DNA of 64,000 nt, taken from contig CAVQUB010000027.1 in the NCBI GenBank assembly GCA_963716725.1, positions 80,118 through 144,117 on the forward strand, read 5' to 3'. The position numbers and the translations under genes were made by a program. Origin of the DNA: an uncultured delta proteobacterium. GTDB lineage: Bacteria; Myxococcota_A; Polyangia; Polyangiales; Polyangiaceae. A model generated the notes under the pieces. That model was not told the origin of the DNA, did no database searches, and worked only from the letters and a program-made list of their open reading frames with translations. This document shows, piece after piece, positions 24,814-55,804 of this stretch (position 1 is the stretch's first letter; each line of letters begins with the position of its first letter).

Positions 24814-27101
<2,288 letters not shown>

Positions 27102-27142
27102 AGGCCCGACCGCGAGCGAACGGTGCTAGCTTCCGGCCCACC

Positions 27143-27167
27143 ATGGCAAATCTGACAGTGGTCGAGC
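27143..27167 (+). pseudogene. First 8 codons (MANLTVVE) of a divergent gene, resembling the uracil phosphoribosyltransferase N-terminus, cut at the junction
   Basis: ATG GCA AAT CTG ACA GTG GTC GAG, divergent from S46; upp proteins often begin like M.NLTVV[DE]HPL (inference from 8 aa). Confidence 0.35.
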
Positions 27168-27301
27168 GGCAGCTCCGGCAGCACCGCGAGCTCGGCGCCG
27201 AAGCTCCTCGCCTCGGCGAGCAGCGCTCCCAGGCGCTCGTCGCCGCCCTCGCCGTGGAACACCTCGGTGATCAGCGCGATCGACAGGATGTCTGCAGGCA
27301 T
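27156..27301 (-). pseudogene. Truncated carbon-nitrogen hydrolase (nitrilase family) N-terminus
   Basis: MPADILSIALITEVF...AEARSFGAELAVLPELPLDH carries the catalytic-Glu motif; homology stops after about 48 aa with no Lys/Cys motifs. Confidence 0.65.
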
Positions 27302-27400
27302 GCCCGCACGCTACCGCGACTGCCGGGCACAGGCAAGGAGGTCGCAGGCTCGGCTGCTTCTTTGATCGTCTCGCACTGGCTTGGAGACTCACCTCCCGTC

Positions 27401-27488
27401 CCCTCCCCCGCGCCGGCCTAAGGCCGGTCGGGGGGAGGGACCCCTCAAAGGAGCGGGCTCGACCGGCGAACGTCGGTCGAGCCCTGTA
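27401..27488. repeat. Two adjacent GC-rich hairpins (REP-like)
   Basis: ccctccccc-gcgccggcctaaggccggt-cgggggaggg and gggctcgacc-ggcgaacgtc-ggtcgagccc. Confidence 0.65.
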
Positions 27489-27590
27489 CCATTGGCTCTG
27501 CGGAGAGGATCAGGTTTGTAGAGGTGTTTCTTGTTCTTCCCTCTTCTTCCTTCCTGCTCGCGCCTCGTGCCTCTTGCCTGTCGCCTGCTC

Positions 27591-28716
27591 CTACAGCTTT
27601 GCCGCCACAGCCTTCGCCATGTCGATCGTCGAGGCGGGGCCGCCCATGTCGTAGGTGCGCGACCCTGCCCGTCGGCGATGACGGCGGCCACGGCCTTCTC
27701 CACGCCGCCGCCCAGTCGCCTTCTCGCCGAGCCAGTCGAGCATCATCTTGGCGGCGAGGATCGTGGCGATCGGGTTGACCTTGTACTGGCCGGCGTACTT
27801 GGGCGCCGAGCCGTGGGTCGGCTCGAACACCGCCAGCTTCTCGCCGATGTTGCCGGAGCAGCCGAAGCCGAGCCCGCCGACCATCTGCGCGCAGAGGTCG
27901 GAGATGATGTCGCCGAACAGGTTGGTGGCGACCAGGACACCGTAGTTCTCGGGTTCTTCAGCAGCCACATGCAGATGGCGTCGACGTTGGCGTCGTCCCA
28001 GGCGATCCGGGGAAGTCCTTCGCGACCTGCTTGCCGGTCTCGAGGAACAGACCCTCGGTGGCGCGCACGACGTTGGCCTTGTGGATGACCGTCACCTTCG
28101 GGTAGCCGTGCTGCTTGCGCGTACTCGAAGGCGGCCCGGATGATCCGCTCGCACCCCTTGCGGGTGTTGACCTTGCAGGTGATGGCGAGTCGTCCAGCGG
28201 GACGCCGGCGAACGGCGCGAACGGCTTCGAGAGCTTGCCGAGCGTGTCGCGCAGCTCGTCGGGCACCGGGTGGAACTCGACGCCCGGAGTAGAGGTCCTC
28301 GGTGTTCTCGCGGAACACCACGAGGTCGATCCCCTCCTTGTAGTTGAGCGGGTTGCCCGGGTACGCCTTGCACGGCCGCAGGCAGATGTAGAGGTCGAAC
28401 ATGCTGGCGCATGCGGACGATCGGCGAGCGGTAGATCGAGTCCGGTCCGGTTGCAGCTCGGGGATGAGCTCGTCCTCGGCCTCCTTCACCGGCTTCGAGG
28501 TGATGGCGCCGAACATGGCGGCGTCGACGTTGCCCAGCAGGTCGACGGTGCGCGCCGGGCAGGGCGTCGCCCTCGCGGCACCAGAACTCCCAGCCGATGT
28601 CCCCGTGGATGTACGTCGCGTCGAAGCGCAACGCGTCGAGCACGAGGCGCGTCGCCTCCATGACAGTCGTTGCCGATACCGTCTCCCGGCATCCAGGCGA
28701 TCCGGTAGTTGGCCAT
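27591..28716 (-). CDS. Isocitrate/isopropylmalate/homoisocitrate dehydrogenase family; multiple frameshifts
   Basis: [65 protein letters not shown], spread across frames. Confidence 0.9.
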
Positions 28717-28796
28717 TGCGTCGATCCTCCTCCGCGGTACCGCCCGGCAGTCCGGCGTGCGGTCCTTCTGGTCAGACGTCTTTCGAACAAGAGAGC

Positions 28797-29607
28797 TCAC
28801 TGCCTCCGCTTCGCCTCGACCCCGGACAGCGACCGCGGCGCCGCGCCGTCGTACTCGGCGGCAGACTGGTCGATGCGGCGCATCGGCCGCTCGCGCGCCA
28901 GCTCCTCGGCGACGTGGGCCATCCAGCCCGGCGGTGCGGGCCAGGATGAAGAATCCGTTGGCCAGCTCGGGCGAGAAGCCGAGGTCGGCGAGCACCGCGG
29001 CGATGGCGCCGTCCACGTTCAGGGGCAGCTTCTTGCCGCCCTTCGCCAGCGCTGCGACGATCGGCCTCGGCGAGCGTCGACGTGCGGCGCCGGCGACGCC
29101 GGCCTCGCGGGCCGAGCGCGAGCAGCCGCCCGCAGCGCGGGTCGTCGGTGTGGACGCGGTGCCCGAACCCGGGCAGGCGGCGGTCGGCGGCCTTCTCCTC
29201 GGCCGATCAGAGCCGCCGCGACGGCGCCGCGTCGACTCGACCCGACGGCGACCCGCTCGGCACCGCGCGCAAGCAGCTTCATGCAGTTCTCCACCGCGCC
29301 GCCGTGGTGGCGGTTGACCGCCAGCGCGCCCGCGGCCAAGCAGGCGTTGAGCGGCGCACCGGTCGGCGGCGGCGTTGCGCACCGCCAGCGTCGACGGCGG
29401 CGTCACGCCGTGGTCGATCGACGCGACCAGCATCGCCTCCATCACCGCCCCGACCGCCTGCGCCCGGCAGCTCGCCGCGCAGCGATCAAGTACACCGCCT
29501 CGCCGTAGGAGACGCGACCCATCAGCTCGTCGATGCGGTAGCCGCGCACCCGGATCTCGTTGGGGGCGATCGAGGTCACCGCCGTCTTCCAGGCGCGTCT
29601 CGCTCAT
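28797..29607 (-). CDS. Citryl-CoA lyase (short citrate-synthase-family protein); frameshifts
   Basis: WKTAVTSIAPNEIRVRGY, LVASIDHGVTPPST, HHGGAVE, PGFGHRVH..DPR, LPLNVDGAIAA, FILARTAG, RERPMRRID. Confidence 0.85.
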
Positions 29608-30521
29608 GCGCGTGACTCCCGAGCCGCAGCACCGCGCCGCGGCAGCTCGTCGAAGCGCTCGTCCACCACGGTCGCGCCGGCTGCGCGCAGCGCCGCGACC
29701 TTGCCCTCGTGGGTGCCGCGAGCGCCTTCGACGATGGCGCCGGCGTGGGAGAAGCGCACCCCCGAGGTCGCGGCCCGGCCGCCGATGTAGGCCACGACCG
29801 GCTTGCGTGACCTCGCCCGAGCGCGATCAAGTCGGCGACGCGCTCCTCCTGGGAGCCGCCGATCTCGCCGAACATGGCGATGCACGACGGTCTCGGGGTC
29901 GTCCTCGAAGCGGGCGCACCACGTCCGGCAGCGGCAGGCCGACGACCGACGTCGCCGCCGACGTGCACCAGGGTCGACGAGGCCGACGCCGGCGCGCGAC
30001 AGGTAGTAGCCGGTGGACGAGGTCATGCCGCCGGAGCGCGACGCGACACCGACGGTGCCCCGCTTGAACCACGCCCGCGCGGAGGTCGGCGCGACCGCCG
30101 ATCATCCCGAGCACGCCGCTTGCCGACCGACAGCACGCCGAGCGTGTTCGGTCCGAGGAAGTCGACGCCGCGCCAACTCGGCCGCGCGCGCCACCTCCAG
30201 CACGTCCCAGACCGGCACGCGGTCGCCCACCAGCACCACCAGCGGGATGCCGGCGCGATCGCCTCGAGCGCCGCGTCCTTGACCAGCGGCGCCGGCACGA
30301 AGATGACGCGAGGCGTCGAAGCCGCCCTGGGCTTCTCGACCGCCTCCGCACGGTGTCGTAGACGGGGATGCCGTCGACCTCCTCGCCGCCGCGCCCCGGC
30401 GTGCAGCCGGCCACGACCTCGGTGCCGTAGCTCGCGCATCAGCCGCGCTCGCGCCCGGCCTTCGCGACCGGTGATGCCCTGGACCAGGACCCGAGTGCGT
30501 CTCGTCGACCAGGATCGCCAC
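29604..30521 (-). CDS. Succinyl/citryl-CoA synthetase alpha (CoA-binding) subunit; frameshifts
   Basis: VAILVDE..RVLVQGITGREG, IFVPAPLVKDAALEA, GPNTLG, SRSGG, MFGEIGGSQEE, RFSHAGAI (phospho-His). Confidence 0.88.
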
Positions 30522-30525
30522 GGCT

Positions 30526-32102
30526 CTACTCCATTCCCGCTCGAGCGGCGGTACTCGTCGAGCCCGGGATCGGCAGGCTGACGTGCCCGCCGCCGCCGCC
30601 GAGCGCAGCAGCAGTCCACCTCGCACGCCAGGCACTCGATGCAGCGGCCCTTGCGCCGCCTCGGCCGGGTGACGTTGAGCACCGGCAGGCCGTCGTCGTC
30701 GAGCTTGAGGATCTGCGGCACGCACGCGGTGACGCAGATCTTCGACTCGCAGGCGGCGCACACCGCGTGGTCGTAGCGTGATCTCACCCGTGGGCGTGGC
30801 GAAGCGGTACGGCCGCTCGGCGGCCGCCGGTCGCGTGCGAACGCGGCGGCTTCGCAGGAGCGCACTGCCGTGCGACCAGCTCGGCGCAGGCCGGACGGCA
30901 CAGTCGTCGACCGGGGTGTCCTTCCCGTAGCACTCGACCGGCACGCCGAGGTCGATCGGTGAACGCGGTGAGGATCTCGATCGCCTTCTCCTCGCCGTTG
31001 CCGCCCAGCCGCATCACGGCGCGGGACGCGCGAGCGGCTCCTCCCGGAACGCCTTGACCAGGCCGCGCGCCGAGTGGAACTGCTCCTGCGACGCCACCCC
31101 CGAGCCGGAGCCGAAGTAGCCGTCGACGCCCGGCTGCGAGAGCAGCACCCGGGCGGCACGGTAGACCTTGGAGGCGGGCGGGTTGCCGGAGGTGTCGCAG
31201 AAGTTGGCGACGCTGAAAAGCCGCGGCGCTGCAGCGCGTCCATGGCCATCATCGAGCCGCCGCCGCCGGCGCCGTGGAACGCCACGACGCCGCTCGCCGC
31301 GGGCGAAGTCGATCGCGCATCTGGATGAAGTAGAAGGTGCCGCGGTAGTCGTCCCGTTCGACCTCCCAGGCGATGCGCTCGAGCTCGGTCGGGCGGATGG
31401 CCCAGCTCGCGGGCCACCTCGATGCCGAGCTCCGGGTGGCGGAACACCGCGGCGTCGTCCACGGTGATGCGGCAGTCGAGCGCCATCGACGCGCCCGTCG
31501 CTCGTCATGCACCAGCGGGTTGATCTCGGCGGCGCGGGCCTCGACGCTGCGCGCCACACGCCACAGCGTCGCACCGTCGCCTGGGCCAGTTCGCGCATCT
31601 CGCGACCGCCCACGCCGACGCCGTCGCCACCGCTCGCGGGCGTCTGGTCGGCCAGACCCCTCGACCGGGTCGACCGGAAGCTCGGCCACGGCCTCGGGTG
31701 CTCCTTGGCGATCTCTTCGATGCCGGTGCCGCCCCGGGCCGACACCAGGAGCGACGGGACACCGGCGACGATCGTCCAGGACGATGCCCGCGTAGCACTC
31801 ACGGACGACCTCCAGACGTTCCTCGACCAGCACCTCGGTGATCGGAGAAGTTGCGGATCCTGCGGCCGAGGATCTCCCGGCGGCCACCTGCTCGGCGCTC
31901 CGCCGGGGAGGCGACGAAGGCGGATCAGACCCCTGGCCTGCGCGACCGGTGGTCTACGCCTGACCCTTGACGACCACCGGGCCGCCGAGCCGGCGCGCGG
32001 CGGCGCCGCGGCGGCGGCGGTGTAGGCCACCTCGCCGCGCGGCACCGACACACCGGCCTCGGCAAGCATCTGCTTTCCCTGGAATTCGGCGAGTCGCGCC
32101 AC
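30526..32102 (-). CDS. Succinyl/citryl-CoA synthetase beta (ATP-grasp) subunit with a C-terminal ferredoxin-like domain; frameshifts
   Basis: LAEFQGKQML, GGTGIEE, EINPL, ALDCRITVDD.AVFRHP, GAGGGGSMMAMD, NFCDTSGNP, RLGGN; then CAACESKICVTAC...CIECLACEVDC. Confidence 0.85.
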
Positions 32103-32238
32103 TGCGGCCCTCCCTCAGGCGCCCGGACCGGTAACGCTACGCGACCGTCATGGGGGTGTCAAGCGAAACACCAGCCGCGGCGCGCCCCGCCGAGGCTGGT
32201 GTTTCACGGTTATCATGGTGCGTCGGCTGGAGGGAGCC

Positions 32239-32817
32239 ATGCAGCGTCACGCGGTGTCGCCCGGGTCGTGCTACTTCTACTATCCCCGCCTGGTGGTGGT
32301 CGTCGGAGTCCGGGACGACGCCAAGACGACTGTCAACTTCGCGCCGGTGGCCTGGGCATCGCCGCTCTCGTCCGATCCGCCGCTGTTCGGCGTCTGCCTC
32401 TCGCCGCGCACCTACACCCACCAGCTCGTGCTCAAGACCGGCGAGTTCACGGTCAACTTCCTCAGGCACGCGGACGCCGCTCTGGCGGCCGAGTTCGGCC
32501 GCCTGTCCGGCCGCGAAACCGACAAGGTCAAGGCGCTCTCGATCGAGCTCGAGCCGGGCGAGGCGCTGCAGACGCCTTCGCTCGGCGCCGCCTACGCCTC
32601 GGCCGAGTGTCTGCTCCTCGACCGCCACCACGTCGGCGACCAGACGCTGTTCGTGGGTGAGGTTCAGCTCATCCACGCCGACGCCGACGCCTTCGACTCC
32701 GACGGCGTCCTCAGGCTGGAGCGCGCCGCCCCGCTGCTCTACCTCGGCGGCTCCCGCTACGTCACGACCGCGCCGGAGACGGTCGCCCGGCCGCAGGGGA
32801 CGGTGGCGGCGAAGTAG
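32239..32817 (+). CDS. Flavin reductase family protein
   Basis: YPRLVVVVG, NFAPVAW, PPLFGV, GEFTVNF, SGRETDK, GDQTLFVGEV. Confidence 0.9.
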   Translation: MQRHAVSPGSCYFYYPRLVVVVGVRDDAKTTVNFAPVAWASPLSSDPPLFGVCLSPRTYTHQLVLKTGEFTVNFLRHADAALAAEFGRLSGRETDKVKALSIELEPGEALQTPSLGAAYASAECLLLDRHHVGDQTLFVGEVQLIHADADAFDSDGVLRLERAAPLLYLGGSRYVTTAPETVARPQGTVAAK

Positions 32818-32852
32818 CCGTCTCGCGCGCTGCCGTCGCCTCTGCCTCGTGC

Positions 32853-33851
32853 CTATTTTTGCGGTGCGCCGCTCGGCGCGGCGAGCGCGGTCGTGGCCAG
32901 CATGCCGCCGAGGCCCATGGTCTCGACCGCGGACGACGGCACGATCACCATGCTGCCCTTCTCCTTGATCGCCTCGTAGAGCATGTTCATGGCCCGCAGG
33001 TGCAGGGCGATCGGGTTGTCCTTGTAGAGCTCCGAGGCGCTTGGCGAACGTGCTCGGCGATCTCGGTCTCGGCGGTGCCGAGGATGATGCGCGCCTGCCG
33101 CTCGCGCTCGGCCTGGGCCTGGCGCGACATGGCGTCCTCGAGGTCGGCCGGGATCCGCACGTCGCGGATCTCGACCGACTGGACGGTGATCCCCCAGGGG
33201 TTGGTCTTCTCGTCGAGGATCTGCTGGCAGCTCGCTGGCCGAGCTTGTCGCGCTCGGTGATCATCTCGGCCAGATCGTGGCGGCCGATCGCCTCGCGCAG
33301 CGCCGTCTGCGACGCGAGGAAGATGGCGTCGAAGAACGACTGCACCTCGAGGATCGCCTTCTCCGCGTCCCACACCAGCCAGAAGACGATGGCGTCGACG
33401 TTGACCGGCACGGTGTCGCGGGTCAGCGCCGACTCGGCGGTCACGTCGGTGGCGCGCACTCGCTGGTCGACGAGATGGGAGATCATGTCGACGATCGGGA
33501 TGATCCAGAACAACCCCGGCCCCCGCAGGCCGCGGAACTTGCCGAAGCGCAGGACCACGGCCTTCTCCCACTGGTCCACCACCTTGATGGAGAACATCAG
33601 CGCGAGACCGAGGAGGATGCCCGGGAAGATGATCGCCGGCGCCACCGCAGTCCTCGCGGGTGCTCTCGGAGACGATCACCGCGACCGGGATCGTCACCAC
33701 CCACACCACGATCGCCACCGCGAGCGAGAACCCGTTGACGAAACGCCGTGAGTCGACCGCCCTGGTCGGTGCCGATCTGACCGACCTTGACCTTCTCCTC
33801 CTCCTCCTTCTTCTCCTTCGCCTTCTTCACTGCCGCTATCACCGGGATCAT
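32853..33851 (-). CDS. SPFH/band 7 (slipin/stomatin-like) protein; frameshifts
   Basis: QWEKAVVLRFGK, GLFWIIP, LTRDTVPVNVDA, WGITVQSVEIRDV.IP, MSRQAQAERERQAR; RBS GGAGG. Confidence 0.92.
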
Positions 33852-34033
33852 TGCCTCCTCCTTTGCGACGGTCCTATCTGCCGCCGCGCTGTCGCGAGAA
33901 ACCAGAAGTAGACCGCCAGACACGTTCCGAGCACGAGCGCGAGTCCGGCCGCCGGAATCGTTCTCGCCACCTCGGCCGTGATACCGGCGGCCAAGACGAG
34001 CACGCCTGCAACGCGCAGCACCGCGTCCATCAC
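33848..34033 (-). CDS. Small two-TM membrane protein in the GntR-SPFH operon
   Basis: Two hydrophobic stretches; overlaps the flanking genes' stop and start codons. Confidence 0.55.
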   Translation of the reverse strand: MMDAVLRVAGVLVLAAGITAEVARTIPAAGLALVLGTCLAVYFWFLATARRQIGPSQRRRQ

Positions 34034-34421
34034 CGACTCCTCCCCAACCTGTTTTCGATCTCCGTGACAAGCTCGACCGGCGTCAGGCCGAGCCCCGCGG
34101 CGCGCGCCAGGAGCTCGTCGACCACCTGCACGACCTTGCGTCGCCGCTCCACTCGTCGTGCTCCACCACTGCCGTTCCGATGAACGTCCCGGACCCCTGC
34201 TGGGTCGTGACCACGCCTCGAATCTCCAGCTCCTTGTAGGCCTTGGCCACGGTGTTGAGGTTCACCTTGAGATCCACCGCCAGCGCCCGGACCGTCGGGA
34301 GCTGCTCGCCGGGCCGCAGCGCGCGGGTGGCGATGCCGCCGAGGATCTGGTCGATGACCTGGCGGTAGAACGGGACGCCGGTCGCGCTATCGAGGCGGAA
34401 GGTGATTGGCATCGGATTCAC
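34030..34421 (-). CDS. GntR family (YtrA-like) transcriptional regulator; frameshift at about 34150
   Basis: PFYRQVIDQI, LPTVRALAVDLKVNLNTVAKAYKELE, GSGTFI. Confidence 0.92.
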
Positions 34422-34425
34422 CCCT

Positions 34426-34479
34426 TGTCATAGTTCACCATAACACTAGCACATTAAATCCCGGTGGGCGGTCTGTCAA
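34426..34479 (-). promoter_or_regulatory. Sigma70-like promoter and imperfect palindromic operator for the GntR operon
   Basis: Minus strand TTGACA-N17-TAATGT; inverted repeat tgtcatagt-N10-actagcaca. Confidence 0.6.
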
Positions 34480-34618
34480 GGGGGCTCGCAGGAGACCCTC
34501 GCGAAGGGCGCGCGACTCCTGCCAGAGCAGTGGGAGAAACGGCCTGGGACGGACTATCCACTGCTGATGACTGGTTGTACGGTGTACCGTTAGGCTCCGC
34601 GGACCGGCAACGGCACTG

Positions 34619-35470
34619 ATGAGAACCTCACTCTTGACTGCGCTGGCGATGCTGGCGTTCGCGGCCAACTCGGTCCTGTGCCGCCTGGCGCTCGACGACG
34701 GGGCGATCGACCCGACCTCGTTCGCCGGGGTTCGGCTCCTCTCCGGAGCGGTCGCCCTCCTCGTCATCGTCCGCATGCGCGGCTCTCGCGCCGGCGGCGA
34801 CTGGCGGTCGGGCCTCGCGCTGGCGCTGTACGCGGTGCCCTTCTCGCTCGCCTACGTCTCGCTCGCGGCGGGTACCGGAGCTCTCATCCTGTTCGCGGCG
34901 GTCCAGACGACGATGGTCGGCGCCGGTCTCATCGCCGGCGAGCGTCCCGACCGCCTCGAGTGGATCGGGCTCGCTGCCGCGCTCGTGGGCCTGGTCGTTC
35001 TCGTAGCCCCAGGCCTCGCGCGGCCGTCGCTCGCCGGCGCCGCGACGATGGCGATCGCGGGGGTCTCCTGGGGCGTCTACTCGCTCCGCGGCCGTCGGGC
35101 GTCCGCACCGATCGCCGAGACCGCCGGCAACTTCGCGTGGTCGCTGCCGTTCGCCGCCCTCGCAGTCGCCGCCACGGTCGCCCTCGACACCGTGCAGATG
35201 GGCGCGCGCGGCGTGCTCCTGGCTACCATCTCGGGAGCGCTCACCTCCGGGGTCGGTTACGTGCTCTGGTATGCCGCGCTGGCCCACCTGACGGCGACCC
35301 GCGCCGCACTGGTTCAGCTCGTCGTGCCCGTGCTCGCCGCCGGCGGCGGCGCGCTCTTCCTGAGCGAGCCGGTCACCGGCCGCCTGGTCGCCGCCGCGGC
35401 GTTCATCCTGGGCGGCTTGTGGCTTGCCGGGCGCTCGCCCCGACGCTGCGTGCCGGCGGACGGACGGTAG
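34619..35470 (+). CDS. EamA/DMT family transporter
   Basis: AFAANSVLCRLAL, RLLSGA, FSLAYVSL..GTGALILF, SGVGYVLWY; about 10 TM segments. Confidence 0.9.
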   Translation: MRTSLLTALAMLAFAANSVLCRLALDDGAIDPTSFAGVRLLSGAVALLVIVRMRGSRAGGDWRSGLALALYAVPFSLAYVSLAAGTGALILFAAVQTTMVGAGLIAGERPDRLEWIGLAAALVGLVVLVAPGLARPSLAGAATMAIAGVSWGVYSLRGRRASAPIAETAGNFAWSLPFAALAVAATVALDTVQMGARGVLLATISGALTSGVGYVLWYAALAHLTATRAALVQLVVPVLAAGGGALFLSEPVTGRLVAAAAFILGGLWLAGRSPRRCVPADGR

Positions 35471-36290
35471 CGGCGAGGACGCCGAGCACCACCAGCGCAC
35501 CACCCGCGATCAACGATGCGGTGACCTCGTCCGCGCCGGCGAGCACCGAGACCACGGCGGCGACCACCGGCTCGAAGGCGAGCACGAGGGCGGTCTCGGC
35601 GGCGGTCAACGCCCGCTGCGCCTCTGCCATCGCCCAGAACGCCGCGACAGTGGCGAGCACCCCGGTGATCGCGAGCGCGGCGACGGTCCAGGCGGCGAAC
35701 GTCACCTGCCATCCGGTGGCCGCTGCCGCCGGGATCGCCAGAGCGGCGGTGGCCAGCACCTGGGTGGCGTTGACGGTCGCCGGCGACGACCGCCGCACCG
35801 CGCCCTGAATGAAGATGCCGTGAAACGCAAACGCCACCGCGCACCCGAGCGTCAGCCAGTCGCCCGCTGTCGGCGGCGTCGCCTCCGGCCTGAGCAACAC
35901 TGCGAGACCGGCGATGGAGACAAGAGCGCCGGCGAGCGCGCGCCACGAGCGCCGGTTGATGCCGAAGGCCGGCTCCAGCACCGGCACCAGTACGACCGAG
36001 AGCGCGGTGAGGAACGCCGAGCGCGCCGGCGTCGTGGTCGCGAGGCCGATCGTCTGGAACGCGTAGCCGGCAAACAGCGCCACCCCGCACGCGTACGGCC
36101 ACCAGGACCGCGGGAGCCTCACCCCGCGCGAGCGCAGCAGCGGCAGCAGCACCGCGGCAGCGATCAGGAAGCGCAGCGCCAGGAAGGTCATCGGCGAGCA
36201 CCCTGCCAGGCCGCGCTTCACCACGATGAAGGTCGCACCCCATGTGCACGTTGCAGCAACGAGAAGCGCGAACGCCCGCACCCGGCCCAT
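35403..36290 (-). CDS. EamA/DMT family transporter (convergent, 3' ends overlap)
   Basis: [34 protein letters not shown]. Confidence 0.9.
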
Positions 36291-36363
36291 TGTCTTCACT
36301 CTATCCTCAACCGCTTGGCTTCGGCCACCCCGCGCTATCATCTGCCGCAGGGACGGGCAGGCG

Positions 36364-37024
36364 ATGGAAAAGGTGGTGTGCATCGGGGTTGCGGGCGGCA
36401 CCGGTTCAGGAAAGACGACGGTCGCCGAGGCGATCGTCACGCGCATCGGTCGGGAGCGCATCGCGTACCTGCAGCACGACTCGTACTACCGCGACCTCTC
36501 CGGCCACCAGCAGCGGCACCTGCTGCACCACAACTTCGATCACCCCGACGCGCTCGAAAGCGAGCTGCTGGTGGATCTATCGGCGGAGCTCAAGGCCGGC
36601 CAGCCGATCGCGGTGCCGATCTACGACTTCACCCGCCACGTTCGGACCGACGCGAACCCGGACGGTGGATACCCGCGGCGTCATCCTCGTCGAGGGGATC
36701 CTGATCTTCGCCGAGCGATCGCTGCGCGAGCAGTTCGACATCAAGATCTTCGTCGACACCGACGCCGACCTCCGGCTGATCCGGCGGCTGCGCCGCGACA
36801 TCGCCGAGCGCGGCCGCAGCGCCGACACCGTCGTCAATCAGTACCTGGAGACGGTGCGGCCGATGCACCTGGAGTTCGTCGAGCCGTCGAAGCGATGGGC
36901 GGACCTGATCATCCCCGAAGGAGGGTTCAACCCGGTCGCGCTCGACGTCATCTGCGCCCGGGTCGAGGCGCTGCTGGGCCCCAATGAAGGAAGGCAACAG
37001 GCAACAGGCAACAGGCAACGTTAG
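36364..37024 (+). CDS. udk: Uridine kinase; frameshift at about 36660
   Basis: [59 protein letters not shown]. Confidence 0.95.
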
Positions 37025-37081
37025 GAAGGTGCTCTTCTCGTTCTGTTTCTTCTTACTGTTGCCTGTTGCCTGCTGCCTGCT
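36992..37081. repeat. Inverted pair of 7-bp tandem arrays (AGGCAAC)n / (CTGTTGC)n between convergent udk and hfq
   Basis: aggcaac x4 at 36992-37019; ctgttgc-ctgttgc-ctgctgc-ctgct at 37056-37081. Confidence 0.85.
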
Positions 37082-37082
37082 C

Positions 37083-37457
37083 CTAAGGGATTTGCGGCTC
37101 GCGGCCACGCCGGCGGCGCTGGCGGAGCTCCTCCTCTTCCTTGAACATGTAGCGGATGGAGTGCTTGTAGATCATGAGGTTGGGACCATCGTGGCGGTTG
37201 AGCTTGATGCAGTCCTTGTCGTACCACTCGATCCAGCCGTGCAGCTCGGTGCCGTCGTCGAGCACCACGACCATCGCCGTCTTGTTCTGCATCTGCTTGA
37301 TGAAGTAGTAGTTCTCGGCGTTGGTCTGCTCCGGCGGCGCCTGCTTGCGGTGCACGCCGCTCCGCATCGGGACGCGGTCCGAAACGTCCGAGATGGAGGG
37401 CCGGATCAGCCGGCGGCTGGTCAGGGCATCACCCTGGAAACGCTCGCTATCTCTCAT
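37083..37457 (-). CDS. hfq: RNA chaperone Hfq (acidobacterial type)
   Basis: APPEQTNAENYYF.KQM...VVVLDDG.ELHGWIEWYD...NLMIYKHSIRY (Sm1/Sm2 motifs). Confidence 0.85.
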   Translation of the reverse strand: MRDSERFQGDALTSRRLIRPSISDVSDRVPMRSGVHRKQAPPEQTNAENYYFIKQMQNKTAMVVVLDDGTELHGWIEWYDKDCIKLNRHDGPNLMIYKHSIRYMFKEEEELRQRRRRGREPQIP

Positions 37458-37535
37458 ATGACCATCGTTCTTCTACCGGGACTATACCACCTCGCGTAGC
37501 CTCTTTCCAGCATACGACGCTCGCCATCGCCGAGT

Positions 37536-38159
37536 TTAGGAGTCGCGCGACGAGCGCGAACGCCCTGCGCCGGGGGGAGCCTCGTGCGCCAGGCAGCACA
37601 TCAGCCGGCCGCACATGCCGGAGATCCTCGCCGGGTTGAGCGAGAGGTTCTGCGCCTTTGCCATGCGAATCGAGATCGAGGCGAAGCGCGTCATGTGCGA
37701 GCTGCAGCACAGCGTCCGGCCGCACGGTCCCCACCCCGCCGCGTGCTTGGCCTGGTCGCGGACGCCGACCTGCCGCATCTCGACTCGGCGCCGCAACTGG
37801 CGCGAGAGCGTGCGCACGAGCTCCTTCAGGTCGACCCGCTCCTCCGCGGCGAAGGTCATGATCACGACATCACGGTCGAGGGGGACGAACGCCGCGACCG
37901 GGCGGATCGGCAGCTTCATCTCGCGAGACCGCTGGCGACAGAGCAGGAGTGCGTCCCGCTCGGCGTCGGCCAGCCGACGTGCGGCCTCGATCTCCTCCGC
38001 TGACGCGGTGCGCACCACGGTTCCGGCCGGACGGCCGGCGCCCGGCCGCACGACCGGGAGCTCGAACGCAGCGACGCGCCCCAGCCGCTCGCCGTCGCCG
38101 GTGCGGATCACGTACCACTCCCCGCTGCGAGCCGTGACCGCCTCCGTCTGCTGGCACAC
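37536..38159 (-). CDS. PSP1/RicT (YaaT) family protein; start uncertain
   Basis: F.AEERVD.KELVR.L, RVEMRQVGVRD.AK, GPCGRTLCC, ISGMCGRLMCCL. Confidence 0.88.
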   Translation of the reverse strand: MCQQTEAVTARSGEWYVIRTGDGERLGRVAAFELPVVRPGAGRPAGTVVRTASAEEIEAARRLADAERDALLLCRQRSREMKLPIRPVAAFVPLDRDVVIMTFAAEERVDLKELVRTLSRQLRRRVEMRQVGVRDQAKHAAGWGPCGRTLCCSSHMTRFASISIRMAKAQNLSLNPARISGMCGRLMCCLAHEAPPGAGRSRSSRDS

Positions 38160-38236
38160 GCTGCCCGACCGTCCCGGCCGCGAACGTCACGCGGACCAAG
38201 GCGGCGGCGGCGTCGGTGGCTCGAGGACTTCAGCGC

Positions 38237-38739
38237 TCACGCCCACGCCCCGCCTCGCGGCAGCGCCGCATCGGCCTCTTCGACGGCCCGCGTCTGTGCC
38301 GCCCTCGCCTCCGCCACGCGCACCGCCAGGTCACCGTCGCCGAGCGCGAGGATCTGCGCGGCGAGGAACGCCGCGTTGCGGGCGCCCGCCTTGCCGACGG
38401 CAACCGTGGCCACCGGTACGCCAGCCGGCATCTGGACGGTGGCCAGGAGCGCGTCGAGGCCGTCGGCCACTCCCCCCGGCAGCGGCACGCCGACGACCGG
38501 GCGGGTCGTGGCTGCTGCCACCACGCCGGCGAGGTGTGCCGCCATTCCCGCGCCGCAGACGAACACCTGTACGCCGGCGCGCTCGGCGCGGCGCACCAGC
38601 TCCACCGTGCGGTCGAGCGAGCGGTGCGCCGAGGAGACGTGCGCCTCCCAGGCGATGCCGAGCTTGCCCAGCTCGCCGCCCACCTCGCGCATGATCTCCC
38701 AGTCGCTCGCCGAGCCCATCAGGACCATCACCGCGGCAC

Positions 38740-38743
<4 letters not shown>
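38237..38743 (-). CDS. purE: N5-CAIR mutase
   Basis: MGSASD, SAHRS, GAGMAAHLAG, PVVGVP, QMPAGVPVATV. Confidence 0.97.
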
Positions 38744-40014
<1,271 letters not shown>

Positions 40015-40018
<4 letters not shown>

Positions 40019-41027
40019 TGGCGACCCCCCGTGCCAGCGCCGCCTGCAGCAGCGACAGGCACGACGTTTCTACCACGTCTTGCGCCGAGCAGCCGCGCGA
40101 GAGGTCGTTGGCCGGCCGCGCGAGGCCCTGCAGCAGCGGGCCGAGGGCCCTGCGCGCCGCCGAGCCGTTCGGTCAGCTTGTAGCCGATGTTGCCGGCGTC
40201 GAGGTCGGGGAAGACGAGCACGTTGGCGTGCCCGGCGACCGTGGAGCCCGGGCGCCTTGCGCTCCCCGATGGCCGGGGATGAGGGCGGCGTCGAGCCTGG
40301 AGCTCGCAGTCGAAGGCGAAGTCGACCGACGCGCTGCCGCGAGCACCTCGCCTGCGGCGCGCACCTTGTCGACGTGCGGGTGCTCGGCGGAGCCCTTGGT
40401 CGAGAACGACAGCAGCGCGACGCGCGGCTCGCCGCCGACGATCGCCTTGAACGTCGCCGCGGCGCCGATCGCGATGTCGGCGAGCTGCTCGGCGTCGGGG
40501 TCGGGCAGCACGGCGCAGTCGGCGAACCCCATCAGGCCGCCCTCGCCCCAGCGCGCATCGGGGTGCACCATGATGAACGACGACGACACGGTCTTGATGC
40601 CCTGCTGCGGTCCGATGGCGTGCAGCGCCGCGCGCACCGTGTCGGCGGTCGTGCGCACCGCGCCGCCGACCGAGGCGTCGCACTCGCCCGCGGCCACCAG
40701 CAGCGAGGCGAAGTAGAGCGGGTCGGCGAGCGCCGCCTCGCTCTGCTCGCGCGTCCACCCCTTCGGGCCGCGGCGGGAGTGCAGCAGTTCGGCGAGTTGC
40801 GACCGGCGGCTGTCGCTCGCCGGGTCGGCAACCGTCACCCCCAGGTCACGCAGCCGCGCGTGCTCCGCGGTCTCCTGTGCCGCCGGGCAAAGCGCCGTGA
40901 CGCGACAGATGTCCTGCTCCCGCAGCGTCCTCGCCGCCTCGATGATGCGGACGTCGAACCCCTCTACCAGGACCACGTGGCCGCGTACGTCACGGGCGCG
41001 TTGCGCCAAGCTCTCGAGAAACCCCAT
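40015..41027 (-). CDS. pta: Phosphate acetyltransferase; frameshifts
   Basis: [66 protein letters not shown]. Confidence 0.92.
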
Positions 41028-41136
41028 TCGCCCTCCCGATCCCCCGGCCGACATTGTACCGTCCTTTCACGAACACCTCGAAGAACCGTGCGGCCGCTTT
41101 CGGCAGCCCGCACGGAGCTTCCCGTGTGACGCCCCC

Positions 41137-41165
41137 TTGACATTGCAGCGATGCGACCGTATCGT
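41137..41165 (+). promoter_or_regulatory. Sigma70-like promoter for the mtrCAB-like operon
   Basis: TTGACA-N17-TATCGT. Confidence 0.6.
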
Positions 41166-41319
41166 GACGTAAGTGATGGTTACTGGACGCTCTTTACGGC
41201 GCGACGGCATGAACGACCCCAAGGTGGGTGCCCGTATGCGCCGTTGCACCCGGGGTTTCCGGACGTAAGTTAGCGCGGCGCCTGCGTCACACAGGCCCGT
41301 GGGGGAAAGGGGTGGGACA

Positions 41320-43389
41320 ATGTTGCTTCATAGCCTTGGTGTCGCGCTGTTGTCGGTGGCCGCGGTGGGGTCGGTGCCGTCGCATCCCCCCGGCACGTCG
41401 ATTCGCCAGCCGCTGCGCTCGAAGCCGGTGGCTCTCTACTCGGCACACCAGATGGAAGCGTACCTCTCCGCTGAGGACGTCGCCTACATCCGGCCCGGGT
41501 ACAACATCACGCTGGTGAGCTTCCAGATCCCGGCCGACCGCCGTCCGGTGGCCGAGGTCAAGTTCACCGACGACCTGAACCAGCCGCTCGATCGGCTGGG
41601 CCAGGCCACGCCGGGCGCGGTTTCCGCGTCGTTCATCCTCTCCTGGTACGACGCCGCCAACCGCGACTACGTCGCCTACACAAAGCGGACGCAGACCAGC
41701 CCGATCACGGGGCAGGCGGCCGTACAGGCGTCGGCGGACTCGGGCGGCCAGTGGACCGAGGTCACGCTCGGCACCTACCGCTACCGCTTCGGCACCACAC
41801 TGCCGGCCGGGTTCGATCAGACCAAGACCCACACGCTGGGCATCTACGGCTCGCGCAACGTCAGCGACGATCATCGGGAAGAGCTACTACGGAACCTCCT
41901 GTACGACTTCCGTCCCGACGGCGGTGCCGTGACCGCGAAGTGGGACGCCGTCGCCACGGCGACGTGCAACTGCCTGTCACGACCCGCTCGCCCTCCACGG
42001 CGGCTCGCGCCGCGAGGTCAAGCTCTGCGTGCTGTGCCACAACAAGACGCAGTCGACCGACCCGGACACCGGCAACACGGTCGAGATGCGCTCGATGATC
42101 CACAAGATCCACAACGGTCCGAACCTGAGCCAACGGCTACACGATCATCGGCTTCGGCAGACGCCGTCCACGACTACTCCCACGTCACCTACCCGCAGGA
42201 CGTCCGCAACTGCGCGACCTGCCACGAGGCGACAACCTCGCCCGAGGGCACATCTGGTACACCAACCCGTCCCGCGTGGCCTGCGGCTCCTGCCACGACG
42301 ACATCAACTGGGACCACCGGCGAGAACCACGTCGCCGGACCGTTGTTCGACGACCACGCACTGCGCCAGCTGCCACCAGCCCGAGGGCGAGAGCGAGTTC
42401 GACGTCTCGATCAAGGGCGCCCACACCATCCCGACCAAGTCCGACGCAGCTCAAGGGCCTCAACGATCGAGATCATGAGCGTGACCAACACCGCGCCGGG
42501 AGCAGAAGCCGACGGTGACTGTTCAAGCTCACGAACACGCGACGGCATGGTCGTCGCGCCGTCGTCGCTCAACAGCTTCCGAACTTCCTGTCTCGGCGGC
42601 CCGACCATCGACTACACCAGCTATTTCCGCGAGGACTGCCAGGACGCTCTCGACGTGGCCAGTGGCGGCACCTGCGACGCTACACCTTCACCGACGCCAT
42701 TCCCGGCCGGTGCGACCGGCACCTGGACGCTCGTCCGCGGACGTACTACCGCAACGTCACGCTCACACCACGCGGACGCCGAGCGCGGCGATCCGCGAGG
42801 CCGGCGCTACAACCCGATCTTCAACGTCCTCGTCACCGACGCTCCAGGCGATGTCCCGCCGCGCACGGTGGTCGATCCCCGACAAGTGCAACGAGTGCCA
42901 CGACGTCGCTCGCCTTGCACGGCGGCCAGCGCTCCGAGGTCGAGGAGTGCGTCATCTGCCACAACCCGAACGCGACCGACGCGTCCGCCGTCCGCGGCCA
43001 GAGCCGGCCGAGACGGTCCACTTCAAGTGGATGATCCACCGGATCCACACCGGCGAGGAGCTCACCCGCGACTACACGATCTACGGCTTCGGCGGCACGC
43101 CCACAACTACAACGAGGTGCTCTACCCCGGCGACCGCCGCAACTGCGAGACGTGCCACGTGGCCGGCAGCTACGGACCTGCCGTTGCCCGACGGGCCGCT
43201 GCCGACGCAGACGCCGCGCGACTTCGTGCCCGCAGTGGAGCCCGCGTGCGGCCGCCTGCCTCGTCGTGCCACGACAGCCTCGACGCCGCCGCCCACGCCT
43301 ACGTCAACACCGCGCCGTTCGGCGAGGCCTGCGCCTCCTGCCACGGCGACGAACGCGATGGTCGCGTCGACAAGGTTCACGCCCGCTAA
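41320..43389 (+). CDS. mtrC: OmcA/MtrC family decaheme c-type cytochrome; frameshifts
   Basis: Signal peptide; about 10 CxxCH motifs across frames (CVLCH, CATCH, CGSCH, CASCH, CNECH, CVICH, CETCH, etc.); MIHKIH and MIHRIH motifs; LHGG.R. Confidence 0.88.
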
Positions 43390-43462
43390 GTACGAGGACG
43401 ACCGCCGGGCGGGCCGACCCGGGCCTCCCGGCTGGCCCGCCCCGCCCGGGAAAGGTGGATGG

Positions 43463-44385
43463 ATGAAACGATCGCACTGCGCGGTAGCCGCCCTGCGTTC
43501 ATCCTGGTCTCCTCGGCCGGTGGCGTGACTCGCCGACGGCGACGAGCCAGCGAGGACGCTACCCTGCTGCGGAGTGCCACGACACGGTGGCGGCCGTTCC
43601 CGGCGAACCCCCACGCGCGCGCGCTGGCGCGGGACGGCGCCGGCCGACGCGGTGTGCGCGTCGCTGCCACGCCGACGGCAAGGCGCACATCGAGGCGGGC
43701 GGCGACGCCGTCGCTGATCAAGAGGCCGGCACGGCGCCGACGGTGCGGCCGACCTGCCTCTCCTGCCACGACGGCCGCGAGTCACAACGACATCCAGCCG
43801 GACGGGGTCCACGCGCATCGCGAGGCGTGAACTGCGACTCACCTGCCACGCGATCCACGCGCGCCAAGCCGCCGGAGCCGCCTGCTGCGAAGCGCCAGGC
43901 AGCGAGCTGTGCGTCGTCCTGCCACCCGGACGTCCGCGGCCTCGTTCCGGCAAGCCGTACACCCACCGCATGCACTCGAGCGGGACGGCGGCGGCAGGCC
44001 GGGATGCAGTGCTCCTCCTGCCACAACCCGCACGGGCGACGGGCGAGGGCGCGCTCAAGCTAGACCGCGGCCGGGCGAGAGCGCCGTGCCTGACCTGCCA
44101 CACCGACAAGCGCGGACCGTACGTCTTCAGCACGGCGGCCCGAGTCGCCGGCAGCCTGCCAGTCGTGCCACGAGCCGCACGGCTCGAACAACCCCGAAGC
44201 ATGCTGACCCGCTCGCGGGTCGTCGCAGCTCTGCCTCGAGTGCCACTCCACGCATCGCCGGCGGGCACCCTGGGCTCGCAGCCGCCGTCGATCCACGACC
44301 TGCGCTAGCCCGCGCTACGCAGAACTGCACGACGTGCCACGTGGCGGTCCACGGGTCCAACGTGTCGCCGCGGCTGCTGCGATAG
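43463..44385 (+). CDS. mtrA: DmsE/MtrA family periplasmic decaheme cytochrome; frameshifts
   Basis: About 10 CxxCH across frames (CLSCH, CSSCHNPHG, CLTCH.DKRGPYVF, CQSCHEPHGS, CLECH, CTTCHVAVHGSN). Confidence 0.88.
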
Positions 44386-44394
44386 GAGGCCGAG

Positions 44395-46334
44395 ATGAAA
44401 AGACGCGCATCCTCATCGCTCTCCTCCTCGTGGCCGCGGTGGCGTTCGTCCCTGCGGTGCCGGCACAGACGTCGCAGTTCGACCTCGGCATCGGCTACCA
44501 GTCGCTCGACGTCAGCGGCAACGAAGACGTCTTCCGTACCCAGGTCAAGGAGAAGGACGGCTTCCTGCTCGACTTCCTGAGCTCCTACTGGTCGAGCCCG
44601 AGGGCGGCCTCTTCGATCGCCTGCCGCTCGACGCGGCCGGCATCGGCGCCAGCCCCGACACCCGGTTCCGCGTCGAGGCGAGCCGCCGGGCGCGTACAAG
44701 CTGCGCGTCAGCTACTCCCGCGCCGACGTCTTCTCGGCGCTGCCCGCCCATGCCAACCCGTTCCTGGCGAGCGGGCGTCATCCCCGGCCAGCACACCTTC
44801 GACCGCCGCCGCGACTCTTCGACGTCGACCTCGAGCTGCTCCCGGGCGCCACCGTCTCGCCGCTCGTCGGCTTCTCGCGACAGCGCTACTCGGGCCCCGG
44901 CACGACGACCTACCACCTCGGCCAGGACGAGTTCGGCCTCGCACTCGATCTCGACGAGACGGTCGACGAGTACCGCGTCGGCCTCGCGTTCACGCTCGGC
45001 GACTGGCGCGCCACGGTGCTGCAGGGGTGGCGGAGCAGCGACTCGAGCTACGACTACACTCTCGAGCAGGCGCCTCGGGCGGCAACAACTCCCGCCCCGT
45101 CCTCGGCCGCGACATCTCCGCCAGCCTGCTCGCCGGTCACAGCCGCACGATCGCGAGCGCGCCGTTCACCAACGCCTTCGTCACCGGACGCCTCGGCACC
45201 CGGCTGCGCATCGTCGGCTCGTACGCCCGCGCCGACGGCGTCGACTCCGAGACCGACGAGACGTTCACCGCGCGCGGCCAGTTCGCGTCGTTCGCTCTCC
45301 AGCGCTTCTTCCAGGGAGCGATGGACACCGCCTACGGCGATGCCGAGAGCAACGGCTGGCGCGGCAACGCCCGCGTCGAGGTCGAGGTGACGTCGTGGCT
45401 CGATGTCATCGTCGGCTTCTCCTCCGCCACCGTGCGCTCACGGGCAGCGCGCTGGTCTATACCAACTACCTCGGATACCGTGAATTTCTCCAACGCCGAC
45501 CCGGCGACGGTGGCGGCGCTTCTCGCCGCCGACACCGCCTGGGAGCGCGACGAGGACTTCGCCGAGGGCAAGGTGGTGGTGCGGCCCGTGAAGTGGCTGC
45601 GCCTCTGGGCCGGCGGCGGCTCGCTCGACCAGGAGGTCACGATCACCCCGGCAGCCGCCGAGATCGTGGTGCCGGGCGGCCAGGGCGGCTCCTACGGTCG
45701 CAGCATCGAGCGCCTCTCGGCCGGCGCCGATCTCGACCTCGGCCCGGTCACGCTCGGCGTCGACTGGCTCGAGGACGACGCCAACCGGGCGCTGGTCCGC
45801 ACCGATTACCTCGACCGCGAGCGCCTGCGCGCCCGCGCCGGCGTCAAGCTCGGGTCCCTGGTGCGCTTCCTTGGCACCGCCGAGTGGATCGACCTCGCCA
45901 ACCCGACCCCCGGGATCCAGTACGACGCCGAGATCGAGCACCTCGCGGCCAGCGTCGAGGTGACACCGGTGGAGGCGTTCACGCTGCACGCCGGTTACGA
46001 CATCTACTCCTCCGACTCGACCGTGATCTTCCGCACGCCGCAGGATTTCTCCACCGGTCCCTCGATCTACGCCGAGGACGGCGAGAGCATCGACGGCGGC
46101 GTCTCCCTCAAGCTCGGCCGCTTCAAGATCGACGCCGGCGCGAGCCGCTACAGTAACGAGGGCGACATGCCGTTCGACCTCGACCGCACCTACGCCCGCT
46201 TCGACGTCCAGATCACCGACGCCATCGGCGTCTACGGCCAGTACGAGTCGCGCGACTACGACGAGACCTTGCTGCCGATCGCTGATTACTCGGCCGACCG
46301 CTACGGGCTGTTCCTTCGCTGGTCGAGCAAGTAG
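44395..46334 (+). CDS. MtrB/PioB-like outer-membrane beta-barrel; frameshifts in the N-terminal half
   Basis: RBS AGGAGG, signal peptide, long amphipathic beta-strands, C-terminal YGLFLRW; directly follows mtrA. Confidence 0.75.
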
Positions 46335-46355
46335 GCTCGCTCAGTTCATCTCCTT

Positions 46356-46384
46356 GCGGCCCCTCGCGGGGCCGCTTTTGTTTT
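46356..46384 (+). terminator. Rho-independent terminator
   Basis: gcggcccc-tcgc-ggggccgc followed by ttttgtttt. Confidence 0.85.
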
Positions 46385-46450
46385 CATGGAGTTGGCGGTG
46401 TCGCTCGGCTCGCGGCAAGGGCCTCCTCAGGTCGCGGAAACCGGGGCTGG

Positions 46451-46479
46451 AATAATTACTGATATTTGATACTATAAAT
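46451..46479 (+). promoter_or_regulatory. AT-rich putative Rrf2 operator/promoter
   Basis: aataattactgatatttgatactataaat in GC-rich DNA, immediately before the Rrf2 gene. Confidence 0.5.
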
Positions 46480-46482
46480 GTC

Positions 46483-46869
46483 GTGAATACGACCGACGCC
46501 TACCGGATCGAGGCGCTGCTGGAGATCGCGGCGGCCTACCCTGAGCCGCTCACCGCCGCCGAGATCGCCCGCCGCCGCTGCATCCCGGCGCCGTTCCTCG
46601 GCCGGCTGGTGGCGGCCACCGCCCGCACCGGAGTCCTCGCCACGACCAGGGGCCCGCGCGGCGGCGTGCGCCTCGTACGGCCGCCCGAGCTGGTGACGCT
46701 CGCGGAGGGGGCGCCGGTGCCGCCCGCCCACCGAGCCGGCGGCGCCGCGGTGGCCTGGCTCGAGAGCGCGCTCGCCGGCGCTCGGCTGGCCGTGCTCGAG
46801 CGGACGACGCTGGCCGACCTGCTCGCGATCGAGCGCCGCGACAAGAGCAACGACGACTGGACCATCTAG
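46483..46869 (+). CDS. Rrf2 family regulator (CymR-like)
   Basis: [35 protein letters not shown]; precedes cysK. Confidence 0.85.
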
Positions 46870-46877
46870 GAGGCATC

Positions 46878-47819
<942 letters not shown>

Positions 47820-47900
47820 GCGGCGAGGGGCGTGGCGGCTCGCGAGGCGTAGGGCAGGGTGCCCCGCAGGCGCTGGCATCGACCAGCGCTTCGACCCGTT

Positions 47901-50218: not shown

Positions 50219-50317
50219 GATTACCCCCAGTCTATTGGTGCATCGCCGGCCGCATCAAGAGACTCAACTCACCAATGAGAATTCGCGCGGTGAATCGGCT
50301 CGCCCCTGGTTGCAGTC

Positions 50318-50572
50318 TTACCGCACGATAATAACCTCGCAGAACTCGGCCATCATCACGCAGTCGCCTTCGTTGTGGAGAATGGGAATCCCCGTCTCGC
50401 GGCAGTCGCAGTTCCCCATCTCCTCCCAGAACACATCTACACAGTCCGCGAAGAGAATTCCCCCTTCGCATTTCTCGCAGTCGCAGTAACTGGCTCCGAG
50501 AGGTTGCGAAGTGACAAGCAAGGTCAACGCGAAAACGACAATACCAACGCGTCCAAGAAAGGTCTTCCTCAT
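50318..50572 (-). CDS. Small secreted Cys-rich peptide (8 Cys)
   Basis: RBS AAGGAGG and upstream TTGACA; signal peptide MRKTFLGRVGIVVFALTLLVTSQPLGA; mature part SYCDCEKC...C...CDC...C...C. Confidence 0.75.
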   Translation of the reverse strand: MRKTFLGRVGIVVFALTLLVTSQPLGASYCDCEKCEGGILFADCVDVFWEEMGNCDCRETGIPILHNEGDCVMMAEFCEVIIVR

Positions 50573-50690
50573 GATGAGCCTCCTTGCTGCGAATACTCCC
50601 CCCCCCTAGCCGCGGTTGTCAAGTGGGTGGGTCCAGAGCGTCAACGAGCGACTGACCTGCGCGCTTGCCGCAACTGTGAGCGAGTACCAG

Positions 50691-51734: not shown

Positions 51735-51764
51735 GGAGGGAGGGTACTACGCGCATGTTCGATC

Positions 51765-52308
51765 GCGCTGCGGAATTGGAGCATAGCTTCTGCGGCGGCC
51801 AGAGCTTCCGTTTGCGGCGGCCAAAGCTTCCGTTCGGTGCCAGCGCTAACGATCGGCCGCTCCGTGCATAAAGCGCTGGCGGTGCTTGGATTGGCGGTCC
51901 GGGTGGCTGCGGGCGGCCGCTGGCAGATCGTTACCACTGGCACCGCGCGCCGCGCCATTGGGCGCGCGGCGCGGCGTCTTTCGGCGCCAAGGCACGCGCT
52001 GCGCGCGCTACCGGCTGGTCTGCCTACGCTCGCGGCGCTGCAGGGATGGAGCGCTGTTTCTGCGGCGGCCAAAGCCCCGTTCGGCGCCAGCGCTAACGAT
52101 CGGCCGCTCCGTGCATAAAGCGCTGGCGGTGCTTGGATTGGCGGTCCGGGTGGCTGCGGGCGGCCGCTGGCAGATCGTTACCACTGGCACCGCGCGCCGC
52201 GCCATTGGGCGCGCGGCGCGGCGTCTTTCGGCGCCAAGGCACGCGCTGCGCGCGCCACCGGCTGGTCTGCCTTCGCTCACCGCGTTGCAACTCTGGAGCG
52301 GTGCTTCT
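51765..52308. repeat. About 247-bp tandem direct repeat (2 copies plus a partial), each with internal inverted repeats
   Basis: 51839-52008 is identical to 52086-52255; flanks are diverged. Confidence 0.92.
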
Positions 52309-52353
52309 TCGCCTGTCGCCTTTCGCCTTGCCTTCGCGTGCTACCGTTCTGGC

Positions 52354-55780: not shown

Positions 55781-55804
55781 GGCCGGCACCGGGAACCTGC
55801 CGGC

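Follow-up and report, generated by a model that had tools for sequence, protein, structure and literature searches.

A Polyangiaceae contig probably joined to acidobacterial DNA by an assembly or read chimera within an SDR gene

At one point of a contig assigned to an uncultured member of the Polyangiaceae, two genes lying on opposite strands are interrupted at the same spot. This raises the question of whether the DNA on the two sides belongs to a single genome, which would imply an HGT event, or whether the two parts were put together during sequencing or assembly. The stretch analysed (hereafter, the window) is 64 kb long and represents the final part of the 144-kb contig C27 (C27:80118-144117); it belongs to the assembly G000, which consists of 35 contigs (7.89 Mb, 68% G+C) and has a reported, marker-based quality of 84.5% completeness and 3.9% contamination. 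Position 27156 of the window corresponds to C27:107273. The features that are relevant to the question are the following:

1 to about 27158 (the first 107,273 bases of C27): myxobacterial part of the contig, Polyangiaceae chromosome
24814..27101, minus strand: S46 family peptidase gene on the Polyangiaceae side (Pfam PF10459 on both pieces)
27143..27158, plus strand: remnant of an SDR gene, start codon and about four codons (MANLT), with the first five codons kept
27155..27159: junction; the homology of the left side ends at 27158 and that of the right side at 27156
27161..27301, minus strand: CN hydrolase fragment (N-carbamoylputrescine amidase-like), first 47 codons, ending in PELPLD
27302..27593: acidobacterial intergenic region, conserved upstream of the hydrolase gene in a metagenome contig (L111)
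27594..29210, minus strand: gene of the isocitrate/isopropylmalate dehydrogenase family, in several frames (Pfam PF00180 on two pieces)
27159..64000: acidobacterial tail of 36.8 kb, reaching the contig end (Pfam, synteny, tetranucleotides, indels)

The junction and the two genes interrupted by it

The genes on the left had been considered myxobacterial in the initial annotation, and the relatives of the S46 peptidase are in agreement with this assignment: the best named ones are proteins from Polyangiaceae MAGs (85%), followed by those of Polyangium and Sorangium (57-58%). An intact peptidase of 756 aa (P0041) is 100% identical to that of the left flank, where the gene is split into two ORFs owing to an assembly indel near 26385-26388, with a second extra base at 27057. 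Moreover, a Ser/Thr kinase encoded on the left side has well over 100 paralogous matches on the contigs of the genome, as is typical of myxobacteria.

Probing with the DNA region 24800-27160 retrieved matches in 15 out of 31 genomes (30 relatives and G000 itself). Three relatives of the same genus (G001, G002, and G005) share 81-83% nucleotide identity with it, and all three alignments end exactly at position 27158, an end point that was unchanged when the query was lengthened to 29000. The divergent promoter region upstream of the SDR start (27102-27142) is conserved with the relatives. The ATG at 27143, from which a plus-strand start MANLTVVE had been read, is indeed present; in the three relatives it opens the sequence MADLKGKTLFITGASRGIG..., an SDR protein of 273 aa (adh_short, E 6e-33), and the gene is not upp, as it had been named. 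Past 27158, the relatives read ATGGCGGA(T/C)CTGAAAG followed by GCAAGACG..., translated as MADLKGKTLFITGASRGIGKAIAL..., while in the window the SDR gene stops abruptly with codon 5 and the sequence that follows the remnant is the antisense of the hydrolase gene.

The minus-strand ORF starting from 27301, previously recognised as the N-terminus of a nitrilase, opens with 47 residues that are 98% identical to the N-terminus of CN_hydrolase proteins (98% identity over 100% of the fragment with P0001, 276 aa, E 3.8e-18). A protein search with the fragment retrieved 40 proteins at E <= 0.01, all of them with PF00795; the fragment alone gave no Pfam hit. Full-length hydrolases are about 276 aa long and continue as PLD-PWFPCSR, where the window reads PLD-HCQICH; hence, the hydrolase gene is cut after codon 47 and, as had been observed, neither of the two genes continues beyond the junction. 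The metagenome contig L111, harboring the full hydrolase gene (88% amino acid identity), aligns with positions 27514-27156 on the minus strand with 80% identity (blastn). A G+C-rich inverted repeat, or hairpin, lies at about 27401-27440, upstream of the hydrolase gene, and is found at the same place in L111 (plus/minus match). Scanning metagenomes with the full-length hydrolase retrieved three loci only, the best being 1391 nt long, and an orthologue of the fragment was absent from three Acidobacteriota MAGs (best E 0.24). An intact nitrilase copy elsewhere in the assembly, which the initial annotation had suggested looking for, was not found, nor was any further piece of the hydrolase gene in G000.

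Given the end points of the left-side (27158) and right-side (27156) homologies, the bases common to both sources are CAG or AG at most, that is, 2-3 nt, which does not agree with the microhomology of about 12 nt that had been proposed; both strands are open over 27156-27167 because the two ORFs are antisense to each other there.

As for the signs of a mobile element, none of the 19 genome hits of the integrase profile PF00589 falls on C27, as the initial annotation had also stated for integrases, and the window is devoid of tRNA genes. The Pfam scan of 57 ORFs disclosed no integrase or transposase family, many of the ORFs on the right side being too broken to score. In these searches (PF00589, tRNA, and Pfam), neither recombination machinery nor flanking repeats were found at the border.

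Content, origin, and consensus quality of the right-hand part

The first gene on the right beyond the intergenic region, that of the isocitrate/isopropylmalate dehydrogenase family (Iso_dh), shares 81-82% nucleotide identity with G033 and G031, and one Acidobacteriota MAG has a 522-aa ORF that maps on it in frames -2 and -3. According to Pfam, the tail harbors genes for Iso_dh, a flavin reductase, GntR, EamA (two genes), Hfq, PSP1, purE, purD, and pta, together with multihaem cytochromes, Rrf2, cysK, selB, comEA, UbiA, and panB. Core genes are represented by purE, purD, pta, cysK, selB, panB, Hfq, and the Iso_dh family; for purE, panB, and selB, the genome possesses other copies elsewhere, with amino acid identities of 48%, 51%, and 39%, respectively.

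The right-hand genes had been described as acidobacterial-like, and both PanB and gene order bear this out. With the proteins of three Acidobacteriota MAGs, the PanB fragment found where the contig ends shares 72-74% identity, compared with 53-65% for those of the other 77 loci listed, none of which is titled Myxococcota. The same three MAGs are collinear with the window over 27583-33600 and 37098-41072 (70-87% nucleotide identity), and their panB loci (L009-L011) align within 59.9-64 kb (66-85% nucleotide identity).

The tetranucleotide profile, a check indicated in the initial annotation, also separates the two parts: the distance from the genome mean is 0.0255 for the tail vs. 0.005 for the left part of C27, the 95% quantile of 20-kb chunks being 0.0176. 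The tail was not flagged by a Markov (6-mer) likelihood scan, which mainly tracks GC. The tetranucleotide axis pointing towards the C27 tail is not specific: the region C32:211-231 kb, which is native (81-85% identity to relatives of the same genus), scores high on it.

Some further aspects of the tail deserve a mention. Between pta and rrf2-cysK (41299-46334), there is a cluster of CxxCH-rich (multihaem cytochrome-like) ORFs together with a probable beta-barrel ORF; the 6.9-kb locus L092 of the Acidobacteriota MAG G032 harbors ORFs matching pta-purE and rrf2-cysK, and none of its ORFs matches the window at 41.1-46.4 kb. The region 47901-50600 has a lower GC content (62%) and embeds an intact 611-aa ORF (47901-49736) amid indel-rich DNA, which may reflect a locally higher coverage or another source. 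Two adjacent 252-nt copies with 94% identity (51813-52311) and two 63-nt copies with 95% identity (58398-58546) also occur in the tail. Lastly, the selB frame (55808-57712, minus strand) has no frameshift and a single in-frame TGA at 56867-56869, which is probably a base error.

The two parts of the contig also differ in consensus quality. In alignments of the window with two or three relatives, we counted the indels that are private to one row and not divisible by three in length:

24814-27158 (left): window, 2 in 2345 nt; relatives, 0, 0, and 1
27617-32796 (right): window, 65 in 5180 nt; relatives, 6 and 8
37108-40844 (mid-tail): window, 30 in 3737 nt; relatives, 4 and 6
62440-63987 (far end): window, 5 in 1548 nt; relatives, 1, 5, and 5

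The right side is thus far more frameshifted, as had been claimed, with 12.5 window-private indels of this type per kb vs. 0.85 on the left (about 15-fold) and 0-1.6 in the relatives; this contrast is a proxy of consensus quality and not of depth and, if short reads of another sample had been used for polishing, it would reflect that sample. Among the 65 indels of the right side, 56 are of one base, and insertions (52) prevail over deletions (13). A check of 65 single-base insertions placed 49 of them outside homopolymers. In spite of 8-12 indels per kb, the tail genes keep 75-78% nucleotide identity and synteny with their relatives. Since the indels are of a single base, biased towards insertions, and mostly outside homopolymers, and since identity and synteny are kept, they are sequencing errors rather than the outcome of gene decay. 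This load, in turn, implies that the tail was built from far fewer, or unpolished, reads compared to the left flank, which is unexpected for a single replicon. A second proxy, the tracking of the frame by GC3, gave a density of same-strand frame switches of 3.7 per kb for the right side vs. 1.1 for the left. The density of indels in the tail is uneven, the bins 48-50 kb and 58-64 kb looking clean. The cover by long ORFs was set aside as a quality proxy, its noise being too high.

The rest of the SDR gene, public contigs, and other joins of the assembly

The missing part of the SDR gene is found elsewhere in G000, on contig C12. Residues 134-273 are encoded at C12:337375-336956 (91% identity), and the DNA that in the relatives is located downstream of the SDR start matches C12:337366-336250 (76-83%), in a collinear arrangement. 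In G005, both flanks are on one contig, 392 nt apart. A single SDR gene thus contains the two breaks, one following codon 5 on C27 and the other at about codon 128 on C12, with a distance of about 370-390 nt between them.

Beyond its own break, C12 carries a foreign, frameshift-rich tail of 6.1 kb (C12:337376-343468, L103) extending up to the contig end. It embeds a beta-helix ORF, whose N-terminus is cut exactly at the join, a frameshifted second gnd (69% DNA identity to the copy on C33), an amidohydrolase gene, and a LarA-like gene (read from the translation). Frame switches amount to 4.1 per kb in this tail and to 1.1 per kb in the body of C12. The two tails do not resemble each other: the GC content is 65.6% on C12 vs. 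70.6% on C27, the projection on the C27-tail tetranucleotide axis is 0.002 vs. 0.010-0.037 for the chunks of the C27 tail, and the comparison of the C12 tail with the three Acidobacteriota MAGs (small, 2.5-3.7 Mb, and possibly incomplete) gave only matches of 30-118 nt. The protein atlas yielded no usable taxonomy for the C12 tail.

The contigs of four public runs from four studies (X1, X4, X6, and X10) were also compared with the window. The most informative, and the only public record that bears on the junction, is record 27 of X6 (2839 nt): after its letters 1-2795, which fit 24361-27155, the remaining 44 no longer fit the window, which means that one genome of the same species departs from it at the junction. 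X6 and X10 contain a variant that is about 98.5% identical to the left side, while in the pieces listed for X1 and X4 every base is the same as in the left side, save for single-base gaps common to the four runs; the X1 contigs show no difference over 19064-27021. To the right of 27010, the bins of X1 have a depth of 0-1.8, and the right-side pieces listed in all four runs are short and 5-14% different. This gap in right-side cover was not counted, since absent cover has no evidential value. When words were sampled from 9.9 kb of sequence with the junction at its centre, none of the 24 runs listed contained half of them or more, and the highest share was 0.45. The many other joints in the contigs of the public runs were discarded as noise, as one of their sides comprised no more than 20-32 letters.

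The same contigs revealed that single-base assembly errors also occur on the good left side, at 26385-26388, 27057, and 19279. The left indels are assembly errors: an extra T behind 26388 is found in the contigs of all four public runs, and the base at 27057 is missing from those of two. At 19279, a one-base difference is shared by the contigs of all four runs, in the overlap between a PAD-domain ORF (19081-20691) and the upstream ORF (18333-19334).

The position of the two breaks allows one to consider a real insertion fixed in the genome, in which about 370 bp of the SDR gene would have given way to at least 43 kb of foreign DNA and the assembly would have broken within this insert, leaving one of its ends on C27 and the other on C12. 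Such an event would account for the location of both breakpoints in one and the same host gene, as expected of an island inserted at a single locus, and for the extension of both foreign tails up to the contig ends; moreover, 2-3 nt of microhomology are compatible with illegitimate recombination. Nevertheless, the two tails differ in GC content and tetranucleotide profile, and the three Acidobacteriota MAGs match that of C27 only. A single donor for both ends was not found, the C12 tail being only 6.1 kb long, and the difference between the two tails implies that a single-donor insertion does not account for the data. Furthermore, the roughly 15-fold excess of single-base indels in the tails over the flanks is unlike what equal copy number would give, the cargo consists of core housekeeping genes duplicating native ones, no integrase or tRNA was found in the searches reported above, and a public contig of the same species departs at 27155. 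On the whole, we consider a fixed insertion extremely unlikely.

Other contigs of G000 show comparable oddities. At C7:74739, synteny with the relatives of the same genus breaks, and the relatives go on into DNA that is held at C22:23260-27113; this second synteny break indicates that such joins recur in G000. The regions C7:78-89 kb and C22:13.7-20 kb duplicate one another with 95-99% identity. Hardly any match in the relatives was obtained with the first 13.7 kb of C22 or with the initial 20 kb of C7. Additional misjoins, or else strain duplicates, are the probable explanation for C7:1-74738 and C22:1-27113. Since neither the relatives of the same genus nor the three Acidobacteriota MAGs are matched by the initial 20 kb of C7, this segment could not be tied to the donor of the C27 tail. 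Not every odd contig end is chimeric: the end of C21, inspected as another candidate, is instead a repeat-studded array absent from the relatives, and C32:211-231 kb is native, as mentioned above.

Myxobacteria lyse other soil bacteria. Accordingly, a further scenario is that of a rare but real hybrid, in which a predatory Polyangiaceae cell would have captured at least 37 kb of the chromosome of an acidobacterial prey, integrated into the SDR gene by illegitimate recombination at the level of microhomology, the hybrid being a rare subpopulation from which one or a few long reads would have been built into the main contig. The low consensus quality of the tail fits with very few reads, and sequence alone cannot tell a single read spanning a true rare variant from a library chimera. 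On the other hand, chimeric reads and misjoins are common, and the border showed neither recombination machinery nor repeats in the searches reported above; in addition, the foreign tail on C12, which is unrelated to the first and sits at the same locus, points to a systematic artefact, together with the break at C7:74739. We therefore regard a hybrid of this kind as very unlikely.

Origin of the join and its meaning

Taken together, these data support the interpretation of C27 given in the initial annotation, that is, an inter-phylum assembly or read chimera, here between Polyangiaceae and Acidobacteriota, rather than real HGT; we assign to it a probability of about 0.88. Taxonomy and synteny switch abruptly between two phyla, the genes at the junction are cut, quality changes (as judged by the indel load, a proxy), the true neighbour of the left flank is located elsewhere, on C12, and one independent record (X6 record 27) lacks the join. 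Two points run counter to it. Firstly, two independent joins in one gene need a special explanation, and an insertion accompanied by a small deletion looks alike; secondly, indels are unevenly spread over the tail, with the 611-aa ORF being intact and those at the far end (5 in 1548 nt) being near those of the relatives (1, 5, and 5).

According to the chimera interpretation, the real genome order would be the S46 peptidase gene, the divergent SDR gene, and then the DNA that is now on C12. The join may have arisen in library preparation or during assembly: part of an Acidobacteriota chromosome, poorly covered by reads, would have been attached at 27155-27159 by the assembler or through a chimeric long read on which it relied. 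The two joins could be explained if the myxobacterial assembly had a gap in coverage within the SDR gene and if a false overlap or a chimeric read then lengthened each of the free ends. The chimeric extension probably survived since it was at a free contig end, without competing reads to outvote it.

Chimeric long reads, originating from library ligation or left unsplit, can extend contig ends. The C27 join resembles such extensions in being blunt (0-3 nt shared), in cutting both genes, and in having the low-quality foreign part at the contig end; unlike the product of one chimeric long read, the tail extends over 36.8 kb, with errors that are unevenly distributed. It probably corresponds to several low-coverage acidobacterial reads rather than to a single one. 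With genomic islands, C27 shares the abrupt change in composition and taxonomy, the disrupted target gene, and the presence of both breaks in one host gene. Unlike them, it has no integrase, tRNA, or flanking repeats among the features searched for, its cargo is made up of core genes, the two ends (on C27 and C12) come from different sources, and its consensus is far poorer than that of the flanks.

Interspecies chimeric contigs are described as a documented and frequent defect of MAGs in a preprint (bioRxiv 10.64898/2026.10.15.759294), whose scope is represented by the short-read assemblers MEGAHIT and metaSPAdes on CAMI benchmark data. C27 has in common with those chimeras the presence of foreign DNA within one contig of a MAG, the acceptable marker quality, and the extra genes. 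Compared to the short-read chimeras reported there, the indel-rich consensus of C27 suggests long reads, and its join would differ from those outlined in the preprint in linking two phyla, in lying at a contig end, and in having almost no shared sequence. The C27 join is an instance of a known MAG artefact, with no biological novelty.

The value of this finding is one of quality control only. About 37 kb of C27 and 6 kb at the end of C12 are not to be read as myxobacterial, and the same probably holds true for the initial 75 kb or so of C7; the problem escaped the marker-based contamination estimate of 3.9%. The genes affected are those of the C27 tail, namely Hfq, the multihaem cytochrome cluster, selB, and the second purE and panB, and, on the C12 tail, the second gnd. 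Any claim concerning an operon, a system, or a gene transfer across position 27156 of the window is unsafe. The true locus of this organism is an ordinary one, with an S46 peptidase gene beside a divergently transcribed SDR gene.
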